Virus record (IMG/VR): IMGVR_UViG_3300020042_010367
Coordinates: 1-27,082 of that record
DNA from: a virus
Lineage: Duplodnaviria; Caudoviricetes
Strand: one strand, 5' to 3'
Length of the DNA stretch: 27,082 nucleotides
The notes under the pieces were generated by a model that searched no databases, was not told the DNA's origin, and saw only the letters and a list, made by a program, of their open reading frames with translations. Both the position numbers and the translations under genes were made by a program. Positions 4,756-27,082 of the stretch are shown here, piece after piece. How positions within the stretch are numbered: the stretch's first letter is position 1; every line of letters starts with the position of its first letter.

Positions 4756-4783
4756 ATTATACCATTGATTTTTCTTTTGTCAA
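4756..4783 (-). promoter_or_regulatory. Consensus sigma70 promoter TTGACA-N16-TATAAT with extended -10 (TGG)
   Basis: -35 at 4783-4778, -10 at 4761-4756. The uvsE stop codon lies inside the -10 box; ATG 4751 follows after 4 nt. Confidence 0.85.
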
Positions 4784-5668
4784 ATCTCTGATCTTAAAAA
4801 TAGCCTTACATTTATTTTTTAACTCAATATCATAGAACACTTCTCTACCATAATCCTCTGGAGTAGTGGTTGGCATGTCAGCGTGTTTGCGAGTGCCGTC
4901 AATGCCTTCGCTGTAGTGAAACAGAGGTGTTGTGGGCCAAGTGTCATAAGCTGCGTTAAAAGCCTCTCTAGGGGTCAAAGAATCGCCAAGGATGCTGTGA
5001 TGTAAGCTGTCGTAAGTGATTGGAATGCTGCGAGTGTTGTGAAAGTGTTTGATCAGGTTTTTGATGCCCCAGATGCCTTTAGCATTGTCGTTGTTTTCTA
5101 GAACTAAACGCTTGCGAATATTATCTGGCAATTCATCGTATACTGACAATACTTTGTCAGCGATTGCTTGAGCGTCTCCCTCTTGACGAACATGAAGATT
5201 GAGTGGAGAACGATAGTCTTCTGGCAAGTCTAAGAGACTAAAGATTTCAGCGTGCTGTTTGAGGTCTGAAATGCTGTTGTCAATGCATTCTTTCTTGTCA
5301 GATGACAGAGTGATGTATTCGCTAGGATGGGAGGATAAACGAATAGGCTTTTCTACCAAAGTCTTTTTGATAGCATCGCACGTTTCTTTGATGCTGGAAA
5401 AGTTTGGCAAGTCAGAGATTAATAGCTTAACATCTTTGTGCGTTAAGATTGGAGCAAGAGACGATGATACTCTATAACCTTGGATATTATTGTTTTGACA
5501 AAACTTGATTGTTTGATGAGTCATCTTAAAGTTGTGCAAGATGCGCTGAGAAAGCTCGTTGATAGCTTGGTCAAAAGGCAGTTTGGCGAATTGGGTATAT
5601 GTCATCGAACGGAAGTTGTGACCGTTGTCAGATAGTGTCTTGGAGATACAGCAAAGGGCTAGATTCAT
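4757..5668 (-). CDS. uvsE: UV DNA damage endonuclease (UvsE/UVDE)
   Basis: Motifs YRVSS, RLSSHPSEY, RLVLENND, YDSLHH, PLFHYSE, HAD, DIELKNK. Start at ATG 5668 (MNLALCC); the track's TTG at 5701 is the -35 box. Confidence 0.92.
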   Translation of the reverse strand: MNLALCCISKTLSDNGHNFRSMTYTQFAKLPFDQAINELSQRILHNFKMTHQTIKFCQNNNIQGYRVSSSLAPILTHKDVKLLISDLPNFSSIKETCDAIKKTLVEKPIRLSSHPSEYITLSSDKKECIDNSISDLKQHAEIFSLLDLPEDYRSPLNLHVRQEGDAQAIADKVLSVYDELPDNIRKRLVLENNDNAKGIWGIKNLIKHFHNTRSIPITYDSLHHSILGDSLTPREAFNAAYDTWPTTPLFHYSEGIDGTRKHADMPTTTPEDYGREVFYDIELKNKCKAIFKIRDLTKEKSMV

Positions 5669-5673
5669 ACTAG

Positions 5674-5701
5674 AATCTAGCCCCTCTATGCTGAATGTCA
5701 A
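5674..5701 (-). promoter_or_regulatory. Sigma70-type promoter TTGACA-N16-TAGATT
   Basis: -35 at 5701-5696, -10 at 5679-5674, ATG 5668 five nt downstream. Confidence 0.75.
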
Positions 5702-6145
5702 TTACGATCTCAAGATTTTTTCAGGATCACGTTCTCGCGGTCCTTTTTCAACGCTCGTCCAACTTTCAAAATCAATTAAAAATAATTTGCCACTATCAGA
5801 TTCTACAACATTTTTCCAACGAATATCATTGTGATGAATTCCATACTTATTCGCTAGTAAGTCATTCATTCTTTTGATTTCCGCCTTGAACTTGTAACGA
5901 TCTTTCGGCGCATATTTGATGTTTAATGATTCACCAACATACTTGGTGATGATTAACTTTTCTTCTGGCTTAGTGCTTATAAGCGGAGCTATAAAATCGC
6001 AATCGGATAAACTAAAATACGCGAACACTTCTTTCTTAAATTTATTAACTGTTTTTAAGTATTTGTATACAAGTAGTTCATTGTTGATTTCATGTAGTTC
6101 TAGCCTCTCAGTCGAAACTCCTTTTTTAAATTCTTTAATCAACAT
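5702..6145 (-). CDS. Minimal protein kinase-like protein (RIO/Bud32/Kdo-kinase-like fold)
   Basis: Candidate VYK lysine and KKE glutamate, catalytic loop HHNDIRWKNVV, metal-binding LIDFE; only 147 aa. Confidence 0.8.
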   Translation of the reverse strand: MLIKEFKKGVSTERLELHEINNELLVYKYLKTVNKFKKEVFAYFSLSDCDFIAPLISTKPEEKLIITKYVGESLNIKYAPKDRYKFKAEIKRMNDLLANKYGIHHNDIRWKNVVESDSGKLFLIDFESWTSVEKGPRERDPEKILRS

Positions 6146-6148
6146 AAA

Positions 6149-6244
6149 TTAAATATATCGTCCTATTGCTTCAATGAAGCGCAAAATCTTTTCTAAAAAT
6201 AAATTGATCATTAATTCTTTAATTTGTTTGAGGCGATTAAACAT
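6149..6244 (-). CDS. 31-aa amphipathic micropeptide
   Basis: Hand translation MFNRLKQIKELMINLFLEKILRFIEAIGRYI. It overlaps the sigma-factor stop by 8 nt and ends 3 nt before the kinase ATG, exactly filling the gap. Confidence 0.45.
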   Translation of the reverse strand: MFNRLKQIKELMINLFLEKILRFIEAIGRYI

Positions 6245-6821
6245 ATTCCTTGGATAGTCTTTCTATTTCTGATTGAAGTTTTTTGGTCATTTTATGTTTT
6301 GCGACATAAAAAGCACCGACTGTTACTTTATATTTTTCAATAATCTCTTCTTTGCTTTTCTCCTTTAAGAAAATATCGCAAAAAATATCATACTCTTTGC
6401 CTGATCTAGTGGTCTTCAAATTGTTTAAAGCAATTTTAATTAGTTTTTGCTTATATTTGTGGTCAGACTTATTCTCCACGGTGCAGTCTTCGCTTCCTTG
6501 ACTCTCCATTAGTTCGTCATCACCAGAGATGAAATACTTAGTTTGAGTCTTATTTCTGCGGATGATGTCAATCATTCTCCATTTCGCAAACTTTTGAACC
6601 CAAGCGTGAAGACATCCCTTTGATGAATCAAATTTATTATTTTTAAATTGATTAGCCATTGCTAAGAAAATATCTTGAATTGTATCTTCGGCATCTTGAT
6701 TGTTAAGATTGTATGAGTGGGTCAAGGAGCGAAAATAACCATAATAATGAGTATAAAATTCGTTCCAATCTTTGGCATTTGTCCAATCTTTAAGATCAAT
6801 TTCGGATGGCTGTTCAATCAT
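6237..6821 (-). CDS. ECF-type RNA polymerase sigma factor
   Basis: Region 2: WNEFYTHY...DAEDTIQDIF...FDSSKG.LHAW...AKWRMIDIIRR. Region 4 HTH: EEIIEKYKVTVGAFYVAKHKMTKKL. Confidence 0.9.
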   Translation of the reverse strand: MIEQPSEIDLKDWTNAKDWNEFYTHYYGYFRSLTHSYNLNNQDAEDTIQDIFLAMANQFKNNKFDSSKGCLHAWVQKFAKWRMIDIIRRNKTQTKYFISGDDELMESQGSEDCTVENKSDHKYKQKLIKIALNNLKTTRSGKEYDIFCDIFLKEKSKEEIIEKYKVTVGAFYVAKHKMTKKLQSEIERLSKEYV

Positions 6822-6998: not shown

Positions 6999-7709
6999 TT
7001 AATGCCCGAATGCTTCGATAGTATGTTTGAAGGGATTACCTTCGATATTCCTCACAAGATCAAGCATGGTTGCGGCAATGTCGCGAATTTCCTTCTGTGC
7101 ATCTGGCTTATTGCGAAGACTCAAGAAGTGATAGAAAGACCTCCAGTTAAACATAACGTCAGCTTGAATCTGAGAGTTGTATGTTTTGAAGAAACGGGCA
7201 CTTTCTTTGGCGCGTTTACGGCCAAGAATAGGTTCAAGGTCTTTGAGGCATTGGTGGTAGAGATCATTGCCTAATTTTGTGTATTCTTCCAATACACTGC
7301 TCCATTCAATCTCATTTGGCTCGTATAAGCCTCTATCACTATCAAACACTGCTAGATAAGAAGAATTTGTAATTGTAATATCTTTATCTTTCCAATCATC
7401 AGGAATGTAATACTTATCCTCCTTCAGTTCTTTGTATCTCGCACTCTCACCATTAACAGAACATCCAATTCGGTGTTTTAGGAGATGGATGTGGCTAGCA
7501 ATGTCACAATCCACAAGAAAATGAAGACTGCTTTTTTCAAAGGGCGTATGATGTCCAGCATCTGCAAGCATTTTTAATAGTTTAGGAATCCGCTCGCGTT
7601 TTCCCTCTGTGATGTCTCGGCTGGTAGAAGTCCAAGCAGAACATGCGTGTACTTCGTCGCTTCCGTAGAAACCAATTAATTCTACTTTATTTGTGTTAGT
7701 TGCGCTCAT
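6999..7709 (-). CDS. thyX: FAD-dependent thymidylate synthase ThyX
   Basis: GHHTPFEK, ThyX motif KHRIGCSVNGESARY, KESARF, NWRSFYHFLSLR...AQKEIR. Start at ATG 7709 by ATGA overlap with the upstream stop (track start 7772). Confidence 0.95.
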   Translation of the reverse strand: MSATNTNKVELIGFYGSDEVHACSAWTSTSRDITEGKRERIPKLLKMLADAGHHTPFEKSSLHFLVDCDIASHIHLLKHRIGCSVNGESARYKELKEDKYYIPDDWKDKDITITNSSYLAVFDSDRGLYEPNEIEWSSVLEEYTKLGNDLYHQCLKDLEPILGRKRAKESARFFKTYNSQIQADVMFNWRSFYHFLSLRNKPDAQKEIRDIAATMLDLVRNIEGNPFKHTIEAFGH

Positions 7710-7948
7710 GGTTGAGGGATAAATCGGGCAATTTTTTGCTCTAGTTGTTCTACTGTTTTTTCTGAATGCCAAATCTCCACAACATCGCCAGAAATATAAT
7801 CTCCGATTGTCGTTTTAACCGCTGTATTTGCAGGTAGAAACAGAGCCTCTGGCTGTTCTAGCCTTCGTTGAGAGACTGATTTTAAATCAATTTTATTAGT
7901 GTTGCAGCAAGAAGCGGCGAATACTGTTAAAAGTAAGAGTTTTTTCAT
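7706..7948 (-). CDS. Small lipoprotein, possible o-spanin
   Basis: MKKLLLLTVFAAS-C has a basic N-terminus, hydrophobic core and lipobox-like Cys; it overlaps the end of the upstream gene by a few nt. Confidence 0.5.
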   Translation of the reverse strand: MKKLLLLTVFAASCCNTNKIDLKSVSQRRLEQPEALFLPANTAVKTTIGDYISGDVVEIWHSEKTVEQLEQKIARFIPQP

Positions 7949-8393: not shown

Positions 8394-8403
8394 ATTTAAT
8401 GAT

Positions 8404-8646
8404 TTAATGATTTTGAGAGACTTTGATTAGGGTTTCGTGAATTAAATGACGGGTTTCGCGGTCAACTACTCGACCATCAACTTGAGGAAGTTCGTTTACA
8501 ACCTCGTCAAAGTCAAGACCAAAAGCGGAACATAGTGATTTTACTTTACGAAAGACTCCAATTTCCTTGTATTTAAGGACTGCCCAGCACAAATCAATTT
8601 GCTCTGGTGACGCTTCTTCAATTGCATTTGCAAGTTGCTTGCTCAT
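8404..8646 (-). CDS. Hypothetical protein (80 aa)
   Basis: ORF track; lies downstream of the consensus promoter at 8686-8713. Confidence 0.75.
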   Translation of the reverse strand: MSKQLANAIEEASPEQIDLCWAVLKYKEIGVFRKVKSLCSAFGLDFDEVVNELPQVDGRVVDRETRHLIHETLIKVSQNH

Positions 8647-8685
8647 GTATTTATTTTAATATTATTTGGGATTTATCTTCTATCT

Positions 8686-8713
8686 ATTATAGCATATTAA
8701 CAATGCTTGTCAA
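8686..8713 (-). promoter_or_regulatory. Consensus sigma70 promoter TTGACA-N16-TATAAT with extended -10 (TGC)
   Basis: -35 at 8713-8708, -10 at 8691-8686; encoded by the last codons (LTSIVNML-stop) of the glycosyltransferase gene. Confidence 0.85.
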
Positions 8714-9601
8714 GACGTTTCTCTTCTCGACAAGAGCTTTTTCTTTCCACTGCTGGAGATAATCCTGATAGAAAGAAGTATTTTCGGTTTTCTGAATCAA
8801 TTCCTCTTCGGAATTAACAAAGAAATGATCAGGAACATTATAACCAGACAACTCGACGGTATTTTTACAGTTACCATCAAAAAGAGGAAGTACGTTATAA
8901 TTAAGAGACTCGTAAAATCTGTTAGCCAAGCAATTATAATTGTTATGATTGATTTCGTCTTCGATATACAAAGATGTTTTAAAGTCAAGCAAGCCATCTT
9001 TTGACCAATTGATTCGATCAATAAAAGGACCGTTAACGCTAGCGTTCGAAAACTTTTCCCGATTCTTCTTGTGAGTAGATACTGTAACATAGCCTTTTAA
9101 ATAATTCTGAAAAGACAAGACACGATCTTTGCGGAAAGATCCGTAATACACGCAACCTTTCTTTTCTTTTGTCGTCAAGATAGGGTCGAACACTAAACTA
9201 TTTAAGTTAACGAAGTTCCACTTATCCACATACTTCTCAACAATTTTGGAGATGTCTGCGCTGTGATTAGCTATGACTTGGTAGCGGCGACCAGCTTTCG
9301 CAGCCATCCATAGGATGCGCGGCTCACCAAGATTATACTCGTTAGTGATATGAAAGAGTTCGGCATTTGGACTTTGTTCTAGCCATTTGTAATCCACATA
9401 TGAATAGTGGCTAGCATGATTGAAAATGATTTTGTCATAGTTTGGCTCAATAACATCATTGACTGATGGGTAGCTCCAAATCAAATCAACTTGGTGGCCC
9501 AAAGTGATTAGGTGGTCTTTAATTTGTTTTGCATTTAACCAGTGCAAGTTTTGCGGTTCTTTCAAAGAACCTTTGTGTGAATCAATTAGTAGGATTTTCA
9601 T
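8687..9601 (-). CDS. GT-B glycosyltransferase resembling T4 DNA beta-glucosyltransferase
   Basis: Colinear resemblance to T4 BGT as recalled from memory: MKILLI/MKIAII, LGHQVDLI/MGLNVDII, NYDKII/DYDRLI, VYYGSFR/IYGGSFR, LYIED..NRFYES/LIIGD..LRVWET, FFVNSEEELI/FYVNNRAELI. Start at ATG 9601 (track start 9703). Confidence 0.75.
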   Translation of the reverse strand: MKILLIDSHKGSLKEPQNLHWLNAKQIKDHLITLGHQVDLIWSYPSVNDVIEPNYDKIIFNHASHYSYVDYKWLEQSPNAELFHITNEYNLGEPRILWMAAKAGRRYQVIANHSADISKIVEKYVDKWNFVNLNSLVFDPILTTKEKKGCVYYGSFRKDRVLSFQNYLKGYVTVSTHKKNREKFSNASVNGPFIDRINWSKDGLLDFKTSLYIEDEINHNNYNCLANRFYESLNYNVLPLFDGNCKNTVELSGYNVPDHFFVNSEEELIQKTENTSFYQDYLQQWKEKALVEKRNVLTSIVNML

Positions 9602-9842
9602 ATTGTGAGAATTCAATGGCGATTTTGCCGAGACTGTTATCAATAGCGCAGTATCCTTCAAACACAAGTACTTTTTCGAAAACTCTTGTTTTAGTGATTT
9701 CAAAAAGTAAATCTTCTTTTTCTGGAATTCTCAAAATGTGCATAGACGGGTCGATTGACTTTAGCTCGCAATTTTCGAATGTTTTATCCATCCACTCTTG
9801 GTGAATGTCGTTTGCTCCAACAACTTTAATATTTCCTGTCAT
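9582..9842 (-). CDS. Hypothetical protein (86 aa)
   Basis: ORF track; has its own promoter and its 3' end overlaps the glycosyltransferase start by 20 nt. Confidence 0.65.
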   Translation of the reverse strand: MTGNIKVVGANDIHQEWMDKTFENCELKSIDPSMHILRIPEKEDLLFEITKTRVFEKVLVFEGYCAIDNSLGKIAIEFSQYENPTN

Positions 9843-9847
9843 GCTAT

Positions 9848-9876
9848 ATATTAATACTTGTATTTGAACATGTCAA
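9848..9876 (-). promoter_or_regulatory. Sigma70-type promoter TTGACA-N17-TAATAT
   Basis: -35 at 9876-9871 within the sulfotransferase 3' end, -10 at 9853-9848, ATG 9842 five nt downstream. Confidence 0.6.
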
Positions 9877-10504
9877 TATCTCGTTCAAAAATCTTTTCAA
9901 CGGTGCGCTTGGATTTAAAATCAAAATAATCATGATAATGTCCTCTCTTTGAAGAGTTGTCATGAGGCAAATTTGGAACAATATGATTAATGTTACAGTC
10001 TTCTAGCATTCCTGAGAAATCTGTTTTTAAAGATTCAAAACGCAAAACAAAATTAGGAGTAAACATTCCTTCTAGCCAAGAACTTTGATCATGAATAGCA
10101 ATAAAGTTTTTGTCTTGTTCTTCATATTTAACCATCATCAATTCACAGAATTCCGCGAAAGTCATTTGAGAGTCCATTTTATATAACTTTCCCAAATCGT
10201 TTTTTAACGCAAATTCATACATCGAAATCGCTCTGTCCCAAGGGTTTCTTACTACAGCGAAGGACATATAGTTGTGAATCATGTTCCCCATTACTAAACT
10301 GATTTCATCAGGTTTTGCATGAGTAGGCGAAAACCAATTGCGATAAGTTTTATCTTTTAAATAACGATCAAATTCTTTCTTGTGCTTGTGGATAAGATTC
10401 AAGTCTCCTAAATGATTATAAATAGAAGTACTAGCATTCTTAGGGATACGAACAAAAATCATACTCCAAATCCATTTATGGGTGCATGGAGATATTTCTA
10501 GCAT
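9851..10504 (-). CDS. PAPS-dependent sulfotransferase (Sulfotransfer_2 / carbohydrate sulfotransferase-like)
   Basis: 5'-PSB loop IFVRIPKNASTSI, 3'-PB motif FAVVRNPWDRAISMY, RFESLKTDF, and C-terminal FERDIDMFKY. Confidence 0.9.
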   Translation of the reverse strand: MLEISPCTHKWIWSMIFVRIPKNASTSIYNHLGDLNLIHKHKKEFDRYLKDKTYRNWFSPTHAKPDEISLVMGNMIHNYMSFAVVRNPWDRAISMYEFALKNDLGKLYKMDSQMTFAEFCELMMVKYEEQDKNFIAIHDQSSWLEGMFTPNFVLRFESLKTDFSGMLEDCNINHIVPNLPHDNSSKRGHYHDYFDFKSKRTVEKIFERDIDMFKYKY

Positions 10505-11016
10505 TTAGGCCAAACTTTAAATTTTAAATTCTCAAAAATATCTGAAAATTTAATAATTGAAATCTCGTCTTTGCGACCCTGCCTTTGATATATTTTATAC
10601 AAGGCATCTTTAGAAGAATTAACTCTAGAGTTTTGATCCACCTTTTCCATACAAAGCTTCCACAAAGCTGCTCTATTAACTATGATGAAATCTTTTTCCC
10701 TTTCAAAAGCAATGTATTCAGCCGCTCCAATTAACCATCCGCCGTTTCCAGCAACATTTAAAAACTCTACCCAAATCAATTCGTCATTAACATTAGAGTC
10801 TGTTCTTTTGATTTTCTTCTGAGCTTTAATGTCTAAAGAGAGTGTCGGATAGTTCTCTTTAGATAAAAACACATCTACATGAGACAACTGTTGTTTTCTA
10901 TCTGCCTTGATAGCTTTCCAGCCTTGTCTCTCAGCAATGGAAATGAAAAGGTCTTCTGCATTATGTCCATCGTCAGAACATTTTCCTGAAAAATCAAATT
11001 TATTACGGTATTTCAT
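10498..11016 (-). CDS. PD-(D/E)XK restriction-endonuclease-like nuclease
   Basis: Helix GHNAEDLF, then HVDVF...LDIKAQK (D...DxK), IWVEF and GWLIGAAEYIAF. Confidence 0.7.
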   Translation of the reverse strand: MKYRNKFDFSGKCSDDGHNAEDLFISIAERQGWKAIKADRKQQLSHVDVFLSKENYPTLSLDIKAQKKIKRTDSNVNDELIWVEFLNVAGNGGWLIGAAEYIAFEREKDFIIVNRAALWKLCMEKVDQNSRVNSSKDALYKIYQRQGRKDEISIIKFSDIFENLKFKVWPKC

Positions 11017-11527
11017 AAAGAGCTATATTATTATCAAAAATTTGAAAATTAAAAATTCTAACTATGGTTTTAATATATTTATCTTTTTTTCGTTCGCGAT
11101 TGATCTCTCCTATAATAAATTGAATTTGATATTTTTGTTTTAAAAACTGAAAAATATCATAAACTGCTCTTTTTATTTCAAAAATATTATTATGATCTGA
11201 AGCTGCGAAAGTAAATCCACAAACGCTTGATTTTGATAAATGCACTGTTTCAATCAAAGAAGATTGTGTTTCTGGCTTAAAATCAAAAGCTATAAAAAAT
11301 ATAATTTTAGATTCTTTGCGAGCATAAAAAATTCTTTTATCTTTAATTAAAAAATCAAAAAAACTTTCTATTTTTCTACGAAGATCGGATAAAGTCTTAG
11401 TTTTAAAAGACAAAGGTTGGGATTTTGTAAAAAATACATGATATAAAGACTTTAATTCCTCTTTAACGTCTTCTTCTCCAAGAAATTCGTGTAAATTATA
11501 CTCAACGCTTTTATTATTTATAGTCAT
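11003..11527 (-). CDS. Hypothetical protein (possibly a degenerate GNAT-like fold)
   Basis: Track ORF 11003..11551; ATG 11527 minimises overlap with the divergent tail gene. The fold guess is weak. Confidence 0.6.
   Translation of the reverse strand: MTINNKSVEYNLHEFLGEEDVKEELKSLYHVFFTKSQPLSFKTKTLSDLRRKIESFFDFLIKDKRIFYARKESKIIFFIAFDFKPETQSSLIETVHLSKSSVCGFTFAASDHNNIFEIKRAVYDIFQFLKQKYQIQFIIGEINRERKKDKYIKTIVRIFNFQIFDNNIALYEIP
11489..11494 (+). promoter_or_regulatory. GTGTAA motif upstream of the tail operon
   Basis: 31 nt before ATG 11526, inside the divergent minus-strand ORF. Confidence 0.35.
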
Positions 11528-12548
11528 GCCAATTAACAATAAAATCTCCAATGATTTAATAGATTTAGAACCAACTGCGGTTTTGGAGTTTTATAAACTT
11601 TATTATGATACGATCAATGAACCCGATTCTTTTTTCCCTTTTCATCCATGCTCTCATGGAATTGAAAACGGTATCATATTAAATGGTATTTCGTATTTAC
11701 CAATTGCGGTAGAGGTTGAAGATTTCGAGACTAATGCTTTTAATAGAATCAATAGACCTCGTATTCGTATTAGTAATGCCAACTTAAATGTTAGTCAAGT
11801 TCTAAGGCGCAAAAATGACTTTAAACATGCAAAATTAGAGAGAATAAAAATCTTTTTAAAGTATATTGATGATGCTAATTTTGAAGGCGGTGTTAATCCA
11901 TTCGGCGTTGCCGATCCAACCGCAGAAATAAATAAAGATACTTATATCATTTCTCAAAAACTCCAAGAAAATAAAATGCTTGTTGAGTTTGAATTGACTG
12001 CTCCGTTTGATTTGGAGAATTTTACAATTCCTGGCCGTTTGGTATTATCTCGTTATTGTTATTGGCAATACAGAGGTATTGGCTGTAATTATTTTGGCCA
12101 ACCTGTTTGCCAAGAAAACGATCAAGCTTTCACTGTTATTCCAACAGGAACTTTCAATTTTCAAACAACTGAAAACGAATGGAATTATGGTAGGTCTTAC
12201 AATAGCGGCGAAATCATTTACGCAACTACAGATAAAGATCCTTTTCGCACTTGGTATGTGTGCAGAAATAAGCATACAGCTTCAGAAAATAATCATCCTA
12301 GTTTAGACTCTTCTCCTTGGGAGAAAGATGGTTGTTCTAAAGTTATCTCTTCTTGTAGAAAGAGATTCTCCAACACAGGAATCAATTATACTGGGTATAT
12401 AGGAGCTACCGCAAATACAGGAAAAACTGTATATAATTTAGTGCCAGCAACTCTTAACGCCGACATTTCTGTAGCTTATTTACCATTTGGCGGCTTTCCA
12501 GCAACAGACAAATATCAATATGGAGCTTCATACAAAGGTAGAAAATAA
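11526..12548 (+). CDS. Lambda gpL-like minor tail (tail tip) protein
   Basis: RP.IRISN, DDANF...NP..DP, VEFELTAPFDLE, CYWQYRGIGC, CSK..SSCRKRF and LPFGGFP; four conserved Cys as in the Fe-S-binding gpL. Confidence 0.92.
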   Translation: MPINNKISNDLIDLEPTAVLEFYKLYYDTINEPDSFFPFHPCSHGIENGIILNGISYLPIAVEVEDFETNAFNRINRPRIRISNANLNVSQVLRRKNDFKHAKLERIKIFLKYIDDANFEGGVNPFGVADPTAEINKDTYIISQKLQENKMLVEFELTAPFDLENFTIPGRLVLSRYCYWQYRGIGCNYFGQPVCQENDQAFTVIPTGTFNFQTTENEWNYGRSYNSGEIIYATTDKDPFRTWYVCRNKHTASENNHPSLDSSPWEKDGCSKVISSCRKRFSNTGINYTGYIGATANTGKTVYNLVPATLNADISVAYLPFGGFPATDKYQYGASYKGRK

Positions 12549-26408: not shown

Positions 26409-26779
26409 TGAACAGAGAACAAATAAAACAAGAATTGAGAGATGAAAATCCTTCTTCTCATATAAATGGTATTTTATATACCACAGGAGATGTTGCTTAT
26501 GAGGAACTATTGGAACAATGGGTAGATGCCCGTGTAGAACAGTTTGACACCACTCCTCCCATTATTGTGAGCTTTCGCGCTCTCGCCTTCGCGCTTGAAG
26601 CTGCTGGACTTTACTCTACTGTTAAAGCCGCCGCTCTAGCTACTACAGAGGGAGAAATCTGGTGGGAAACCGCAAAGTCTTCAACTGTTGCTCGCGATCA
26701 TCCATTTGTTGCTCAATTGCAATCAGTTCTAGGAAAGACAGATGCAGAGATTGACGCAATCTTTGATGCTGCAAAATAA
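26405..26779 (+). CDS. Fibre-associated phage protein
   Basis: Pattern VS.R....AL...GL...V....IWWE.A....R.HP.V..L...LG.TD.EIDAIF.AA. Start at ATG 26405 by ATGA overlap (track start 26390). Confidence 0.7.
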   Translation: MMNREQIKQELRDENPSSHINGILYTTGDVAYEELLEQWVDARVEQFDTTPPIIVSFRALAFALEAAGLYSTVKAAALATTEGEIWWETAKSSTVARDHPFVAQLQSVLGKTDAEIDAIFDAAK

Positions 26780-27082
26780 TGAATGCTAAATTTATCATAT
26801 TAATTATGGGCAGAAGTGGCGCTGGGAAATCCACATATTATAATAAATATAAAGACTCATTCGAATCTCATTTGTACCTCAACAATGACAGCGTTCGACA
26901 ATCTAGTGACAATAAAGATTTTTCAATTCAAGGAAGATTAAATGCCGCAAAAGAAATGACCAAACGAATTTCTAATTCTGAAAATGAATTGGTAGTGGTT
27001 GATATGATTTGCCCACTAAAAGAAATGAGAAAGATTATATCTCCTCACATGATAATCTGGATCGACAGAGAGTTCGAAAGCT
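26779..27082 (+). CDS. Adenylylsulfate (APS) kinase-like P-loop kinase, truncated by the window edge
   Basis: Not in the ORF track. Hand translation MNAKFIILIMGRSGAGKST...LNNDSVR....DFSIQGR...VVVDMICPLKEMRK...IIWID. Walker A plus CysC-like D.VR, FS...R and I(S/C)P...R motifs; TAATG coupling. Confidence 0.75.
   Translation, partial: MNAKFIILIMGRSGAGKSTYYNKYKDSFESHLYLNNDSVRQSSDNKDFSIQGRLNAAKEMTKRISNSENELVVVDMICPLKEMRKIISPHMIIWIDREFES

Follow-up and report, generated by a model that had tools for sequence, protein, structure and literature searches.

The DNA analysed here (the window, 27,082 nt) is the whole of IMG/VR record IMGVR_UViG_3300020042_010367, a linear viral contig estimated to be 20% complete, and it encodes a GT-B glycosyltransferase (GT) that, as judged by profile and structural-model comparisons, is a true distant homologue of the phage T4 DNA beta-glucosyltransferase (BGT), with the BGT fold. 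The GT gene lies in a block with genes for an 86-aa protein, a carbohydrate-type sulfotransferase dependent on 3'-phosphoadenosine 5'-phosphosulfate (PAPS), and a PD-(D/E)XK-like nuclease, which a first-pass annotation had read as one system that glycosylates a hydroxylated base and then sulfates the sugar. That gene linkage fails beyond a single syntenic clade; the cluster consists of three modules that are gained and lost independently and share one accessory slot. The GT itself belongs to a widespread, mobile, stand-alone BGT-like family found mostly in replication modules, and we put the chances at about even that it is a post-replicative DNA glucosyltransferase that would act on the phage's own DNA and blunt host restriction. 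Locus labels (L) and genome labels (G) below denote related stretches and records compared with the window.

The glucosyltransferase and its family

The resemblance to T4 BGT, which we take to be CAZy family GT63, is seen by profile-profile and fold methods only, since plain sequence searches found nothing named: the window GT had no match in the PDB by single-sequence or profile sequence searches, nothing of note in Pfam and PHROG, and no match to phrog_7922, and PF09198 matched none of 62 members of the GT set A1. Aligned by hhalign with a 118-row profile of the GT, T4 BGT gave a probability of 95.4 (E = 1.9e-8, 252 columns), against 1.8 for the T4 AGT control. With the AlphaFold model of the GT (pLDDT 96.7), Foldseek ranks 1 to 6 were all BGT (E = 5.9e-10 to 3.2e-7; TM-score, 0.66 to 0.71), followed from E = 1.6e-6 by other GT-B enzymes (small-molecule, lipid, and protein GTs); BGT was ahead of all of these by about three orders of magnitude in E-value, and also by TM-score. 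The ESM Atlas listed PF09198 clusters for the GT at 0.96 to 0.97. The family is not a member of PF09198, neither a match to its hidden Markov model nor the precursor pathway having been found. Both the profile and the fold comparison proposed in the first-pass annotation gave BGT, and the motifs it had pointed to, YYGSFR (residue 152), NRFYES (227), and FVNSEEELI (261), are present and colinear with the T4 enzyme.

The aligned residues are consistent with a retained active site. R157, R228, and E231 are conserved in 118/118 relatives and R160 and D215 in 117/118; in sequence order, R157, R160, D215, R228, and E231 stand opposite T4 R191, R195, D258, R269, and E272 (R160 one column off R195), which we take to be the residues that bind uridine diphosphate (UDP). 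E88 is opposite T4 D100, described as catalytic in the accessible part of Pyle et al. (bioRxiv 10.1101/2023.12.21.572611), and this position is acidic throughout the 118 relatives (E in 85, D in 33). The family is large (458 hits among 837 candidates; 490 clusters at 50% identity) and, like T4 BGT, restricted to viruses; an A1-based scan of prokaryote genomes gave 86 pattern matches, none of them confirmed. At one locus (L119:8147-10339) a partial GT gene (184 aa) lies downstream of a full one, and a reverse open reading frame (ORF) of 242 aa separates the two.

Carriers range from 34-kb to 210-kb phages. The window GT shares 53% identity with its counterpart in G024, a P22-like phage of 34 kb (99% complete) that has it between a replication initiator and RusA and no nucleotide-pathway match in the 27 of 42 ORFs scanned (further ORFs were scanned separately). 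This identity exceeds the 43 to 45% seen for the nuclease between clades of the window's own group, indicating transfer of the GT as a single gene. In unrelated phages, replication and packaging genes are far commoner neighbours of the GT than glycan genes: they include DNA polymerase B with a clamp loader (L040, L074), a replication initiator with DnaB (L069), a nuclease with an SNF2 helicase (L055, L067), a ParB-like protein with terminase (L076), and the UvsY-UvsW stretch (LPCS28), while two N6/N4 methyltransferases adjoin the GT in L072. The L040 copy (L040:10001-14764) belongs to a replication block like that of T4, with a carbamoyltransferase (PF02543/PF16861) 2.2 kb away; none of the genes scanned there matched ThyA. 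By tblastn, 5 of 50,697 records carried the GT, among them the cultured Cronobacter phages S13 and LPCS28 and Citrobacter phage Ci1, so the question of the acceptor is directly testable. Neither a sulfotransferase nor a hydroxymethylase was found in Ci1 and LPCS28, the two of these three phages that the searches covered.

In the accessible parts of the sources, described DNA glycosylation places a sugar on a hydroxyl already installed through a phage ThyA homologue or TET (PMC13326640; bioRxiv 2023.12.21.572611). The expectation of a hydroxy-base pathway alongside the GT was not borne out: no recognised pathway was found in the GT-bearing genomes searched, complete ones included. These searches covered 26 records, 24 of them GT-bearing (19 partial, 5 complete); the record searches leave out L017, L151, L320, L205, L206, L340, L044, L030, and L339. 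Tet_JBP matched 0/26 records, in a search whose positive control gave nothing over the cut-off, and C5-methyltransferase likewise 0/26, with 9/14 controls matched. ThyA-family profiles, which in the T4 control found td and gp42, matched one gene each in Ci1 and LPCS28 and none in the other records; both genes have the Asn-type motif, and that of LPCS28 is in a frd-thyA-nrdA-nrdB run. None of the five complete GT-bearing genomes had a recognised TET, hydroxymethylase, or C5-methyltransferase. The full gene set of the window phage is not visible, because the record is only 27 kb and about 20% complete.

An all-against-all BLAST of 14 records left the GT as the only cluster common to all nine GT-bearing phage groups. 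The GT family does not require thyX, for which LPCS28 has the canonical frd-thyA instead and which had no match in the GT-bearing G016, G024, and G025. Several genes of the window were considered as partners of the GT and set aside: the 2-oxoglutarate (2OG)-Fe(II) oxygenase (1491-2381), for which neither the sister clade nor unrelated carriers gave a match; a 210-aa gene (655-1287), absent from unrelated carriers; and thyX, the kinase, and the nuclease, none of which is common to GT-bearing phages. In the sister clade, a homologue of the 210-aa gene immediately follows the GT, and in L040 one sits just ahead of the GT.

Dissociation of the three modules

The four ORFs of the block are co-oriented on the minus strand, placed as the first-pass annotation had them (Table 1). 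The nuclease and sulfotransferase genes overlap by 7 nt and the 86-aa and GT genes by 20 nt, with a gap of 8 nt between the sulfotransferase and 86-aa genes; the block is divergent from, and just past, a lambda-like tail-tip operon (gpL, JAB, gpJ). Of 39 close loci, 37 have the four genes side by side, with the GT downstream of the sulfotransferase; this adjacency carries little weight because the whole ~20 kb is syntenic there.

Table 1. Features of the window discussed in the text
Feature	Position	Strand	Remarks
T4 beta-glucosyltransferase-like GT-B enzyme	8687..9601	-	304 aa; ATG at 9601; large viral family; E88 aligned with T4 D100
86-aa protein	9582..9842	-	clade-core; travels with the nuclease, at loci with or without sulfotransferase or GT
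PF03567 PAPS-dependent carbohydrate-type sulfotransferase	9851..10504	-	217 aa; accessory insert between nuclease and 86-aa gene
PD-(D/E)XK-like nuclease	10498..11016	-	172 aa; E21, D48, D62-x-K64; clade-core, past tail-tip operon
sigma70-like promoter candidate, TTGACA-17-TAATAT	9848..9876	-	at sulfotransferase end; 10/12 match
sigma70-like promoter candidate	8686..8713	-	12/12 match; in GT 3' end, toward downstream small genes
thyX	6999..7772	-	PF02511, E 3.8e-31; context
APS-kinase-like P-loop protein	26779..27082	+	cut by contig end; context; possible PAPS source

Closely related alleles separate the genes one at a time. L011, L037, and L104 lack only the sulfotransferase, their flanks being 92 to 98% identical to the sulfotransferase-bearing L010, L036, and L105; L290, a single contig, lacks ~886 bp of the GT, with flanks 93 to 96% identical to L035, and keeps the nuclease, sulfotransferase, and 86-aa gene. 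On a nuclease tree made by a quick method, with long branches, the nuclease and 86-aa gene are present in the sister clade, where the GT is 5 to 7.6 kb off and no sulfotransferase is adjacent; another clade (support 99) has nuclease and sulfotransferase without the GT, usually with a Mu Mom gene nearby; and L320, L321, L322, L331, and L332 have the nuclease with neither GT nor sulfotransferase within ~9 to 10 kb downstream. The nuclease and 86-aa gene are the core slot of the clade. Farther afield, no sulfotransferase was found in 38 more distant GT loci and no BGT-like GT in 64 distant sulfotransferase loci. At the level of whole records, a sulfotransferase is present in 5 of 24 GT-bearing ones, which all belong to the window's clade, and was found in no complete genome of the five; conversely, the GT was not found in the sulfotransferase-bearing G007 and G008 (87% complete), in a search in which the controls G001, G005, and Ci1 score.

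A promoter between the sulfotransferase and the GT had also been noted, and a candidate does lie there, upstream of the 86-aa gene. The promoter scan as a whole gave 16 sites against 13.7 expected, so that only conservation lends the candidate weight: its TTGACA is exact in 14 of 18 distinct related sequences. If active, this site would drive the 86-aa gene and the GT apart from the sulfotransferase. The -35 TTGACA of the second candidate, in the 3' end of the GT, is retained in the GT-less allele L290.

Sulfotransferase, nuclease, and surrounding genes

The assignment of the sulfotransferase stands (PF03567, E = 1.9e-18; 68 bits against a cut-off of 22). It keeps IPKNASTS at residue 20 and RNPWDRAIS at 86, both conserved and both presumably PAPS-binding motifs. 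Its likely acceptor, judged from the company its relatives keep, is a glycan, of a surface or of the virion, that other GTs make, because those relatives often adjoin glycan GTs and never the BGT-like GT. In 53 distant loci (97 of 112 neighbour genes scanned, near-duplicate loci mostly dropped, part of L216 and L217 covered in a separate scan), the next gene was a glycan GT in 13, a nucleotide-sugar enzyme in 3, APS-kinase-like in 3, and a C5-methyltransferase in 2 near-identical loci; many neighbours had no Pfam match. Phage PF03567 sulfotransferases (phrog_3347) share family and motifs with that of the window and are often found beside GT2/7/8/10/11/25/29/47 or nucleotide-sugar enzymes; unlike those of glycan islands, the window gene lies between the nuclease and a small gene, with no adjacent glycan GT. 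In the close relative G001, one of three sulfotransferase genes comes immediately after a GT8 that adjoins a tail-fibre-like gene, and a GT1 and a GDP-mannose dehydratase are also present; some members of the GT-less clade have GT14 and UDP-galactopyranose mutase downstream. The G001 glycan island (L080:6391-16480) runs from the tail-fibre-like gene through GT8 and sulfotransferase to GT1, a cupin, the third sulfotransferase, and a GT, the GDP-mannose dehydratase lying further along.

A gene for an adenosine 5'-phosphosulfate (APS)-kinase-like protein does begin at 26779, as first proposed, but it is a contig-end fragment under the Pfam cut-off (19.2 against 21.1 bits). The fragment is 30% identical to an APS-kinase-like gene directly upstream of the L255 sulfotransferase, and a homologue is present in G001, ~28 kb from a sulfotransferase; it had no match in the sulfotransferase-bearing G007 and G008. 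ATP sulfurylase was found in 0/5 records, and APS kinase over the cut-off in 1/22, that one without a sulfotransferase. The fragment is a fair lead to a PAPS supply.

Sulfotransferases also occur in two other settings. In replication modules at L255:7702-12648 and L264:3294-7552, co-oriented genes for a DUF1376 initiator, an Asp/Asn beta-hydroxylase, an APS-kinase-like gene, the PF03567 sulfotransferase, and a C5 DNA methyltransferase lie together, the L255 run also carrying Mom, and the BGT-like GT was found at neither. These runs are better suited than the window for asking whether a phage sulfotransferase touches DNA. In the cultured T4-like phage DLP6 (L099:7980-11985), a sulfotransferase is two genes before DNA polymerase, with a dATP/dGTP diphosphohydrolase-like gene beside it.

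For the nuclease, the PD-(D/E)XK assignment stood in part: the model (pLDDT 88.7) resembles such folds, weakly (best E = 1.3e-3, probability 1.0). Its nearest Foldseek matches, I-Ssp6803I, Hjc/Hje, and RecU, are of similar size; it differs from them in having D for E in D/E-x-K and in match strength (weaker than E 1e-3), and its activity is predicted. E21, D48, and K64 are invariant and D62 nearly so; Pfam and PHROG gave no match, and the ESM Atlas leads were PF13020 (18%) and PF24579 (13%). The idea that this nuclease guards the modification by cutting unmodified DNA does not fit its persistence at loci without GT and sulfotransferase. With the 86-aa gene, it more likely serves, on the model comparison, as a core enzyme that processes branched DNA than as a guard of a modification, since it is clade-core and independent of both other modules.

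The first-pass annotation put thyX about 1 kb downstream, and the gene does start ~0.9 kb downstream. Close relatives (L014, L016, L030, L031) have one or the other of two thyX types (~70 to 95% versus ~33% identical to that of the window), and among them the position of thyX relative to the sigma factor and uvdE genes also shifts; in the window these belong to the same accessory block (4757-6821: UvdE UV endonuclease, a small kinase-like gene, and an ECF-type sigma factor). Upstream of the nuclease, a 182-aa gene (11003-11551; GC 0.24, third-position GC 0.15) diverges faster than its neighbours and had no family match. DUF1501 and PSCyt2/PSD1 genes in G001 presumably point to a Planctomycetes-Verrucomicrobia host. 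Half or more of the words sampled from 8400-11600 were present in six public runs, all of them freshwater metagenomes, and no RNA run was listed among the public runs with such words. Contigs of four freshwater runs cover the stretch with no joint that skips a gene, and are uninformative on variants.

Acceptor and function of the glucosyltransferase

As the GT is found with or without the sulfotransferase, and without a recognised modified-base gene, it likely works alone. The enzyme would use UDP-glucose as sugar donor in an inverting transfer to a flipped-out base after replication, and the glucosylated base in phage DNA would then blunt host restriction. T4 bgt adjoins gene 42, whereas the GT carriers searched have neither hydroxymethylase nor TET; with the BGT catalytic machinery kept but no ThyA or TET partner, the family must use another acceptor. 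By analogy with Mom, this could tentatively be a canonical base, and it is equally tentative that the family is a single-gene system that places sugar directly on such a base, needing no hydroxymethyl group there beforehand, and that unrelated phages exchange much as they do orphan methyltransferases or Mom. A hydroxylated base from the host or from an unrecognised enzyme appears to us unlikely, more so than a canonical one.

Mom is described, in the accessible passages of two papers, as a single enzyme that modifies canonical adenine to evade restriction (PMC13219725; PMC7261163). The likeness of Mu Mom to the proposed activity would be of function only (a single enzyme, a canonical base, action after replication, evasion of restriction): Mom has a GNAT fold and a Gly-tRNA donor and no homology to the GT. 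In the GT-less clade, Mom (PF25680, E ~1e-35) is part of the same accessory block, 1.5 to 2.3 kb beyond the nuclease (L323:11970-12644, L333:12035-12691, L211:12256-12939, L336:12775-13503). It was found in 7/45 records and in none of 25 GT-bearing ones; 0/157 GT loci have Mom and 0/80 Mom loci have the GT. This contrast is a hint only, as it represents one evolutionary event, a different insertion site, and a low base rate of Mom.

Several observations weigh against a DNA glucosyltransferase that acts alone. Identity to T4 BGT is ~17 to 19%, and the GT is 47 aa shorter (304 versus 351 aa). The positions aligned with T4 N70, F72, and R115, which we take to be base-flipping residues, vary across the wide GT family, and the pI of the window GT is 6.8 against 9.05 for T4 BGT (family median 8.7, above 8 in 84/118). 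The GT abuts glycan genes in L045; the TET search ran without a positive control over the cut-off; and every fold match of the nuclease lies above E 1e-3. The seven Mom-bearing records all belong to one nuclease clade and use a nearby but different insertion site, L326 and L330, closely related to them, lack GT and Mom alike, and, with Mom in just 1 of 64 unrelated loci, GT-Mom exclusivity is not significant. The acceptor and the glucosylation itself are predicted from sequence and model comparison.

The strongest alternative, which we rate as a real possibility though short of even, is a BGT-like enzyme repurposed to a non-DNA acceptor, such as a host or phage protein, a surface glycan, or a small molecule (for example, a defence signal), with the modules again independent. 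It accounts for the missing hydroxy-base pathway, which takes away the only known BGT substrate, and it fits the low identity, the variable flipping loop, the small-molecule, lipid, and protein GTs that come next in Foldseek, and the wealth of glycan genes in the clade; the Foldseek lead of BGT over all other GT-B enzymes and the preponderance of replication and packaging neighbours speak against it. In the accessible part of Pyle et al. (bioRxiv 10.1101/2023.12.21.572611), 5mYOX/TET- and ThyS-linked GT-B enzymes (GT53, GT66, GT94) are, like the GT, T4 BGT-like in structure and often near polymerase, helicase, ParB, and terminase genes, but they cluster with C5-methyltransferase and 5mYOX or with ThyS, and the window's family with neither. 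About 65% of the GT hits there have no base-modification neighbour, and GTs without a 5mYOX or ThyS neighbour are rated as less likely DNA modifiers.

A T4-like two-step modification, in which an unrecognised phage enzyme, the 2OG-Fe(II) oxygenase or thyX, supplies the hydroxylated base, seems improbable to us. Both genes are conserved in close relatives, but the oxygenase is PF13640 and not Tet_JBP, and is unmatched in the sister clade and unrelated carriers; thyX keeps what we take to be an FDTS-type motif; and no partner is common to GT-bearing phages. On its side, ThyA-type homologues make 5-hydroxycytosine, according to the accessible part of one source (PMC13326640). The reading first proposed for the window, in which a hydroxylated base is glucosylated, the sugar sulfated, and unmodified DNA cut by the nuclease, has become very improbable, and would at most describe a local second step in the window's clade. 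The adjacency in close loci, the intact appearance of both GT and sulfotransferase, the APS-kinase-like gene in the window and G001, and the position of the L255 and L264 sulfotransferases between APS-kinase-like gene and DNA modifiers favour it. The sulfotransferase, however, is retained in an entire clade that lacks the GT, the enzyme supposed to make its substrate, and also in the GT-less allele L290; the nuclease is kept where both are missing, no hydroxy-base pathway was found, and a conserved promoter-like site splits the genes.

The literature search, poor in subscription papers, turned up no publication that brings together phage, glycosyl- or glucosyltransferase, sulfotransferase, and DNA modification, and none whose title or opening abstract lines concern sulfated DNA or the BGT-like GT family; the passages seen of PMC13216743, PMC11659082, and PMC9599517 have nothing on this family, and "sulfo" and "sulfat" have 0 occurrences in the accessible main text of bioRxiv 10.1101/2023.12.21.572611.

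What is new here is the dissociation of GT and sulfotransferase, the contrast with Mom, and the cultured carriers as a test system; the idea of sulfated-sugar DNA no longer merits pursuit here. If the acceptor of the GT is a canonical base, the family would represent a new DNA modification and a new anti-restriction strategy, and possibly a tool for labelling DNA; with a protein or small molecule as acceptor, the family would be a repurposed BGT directed at some host target.

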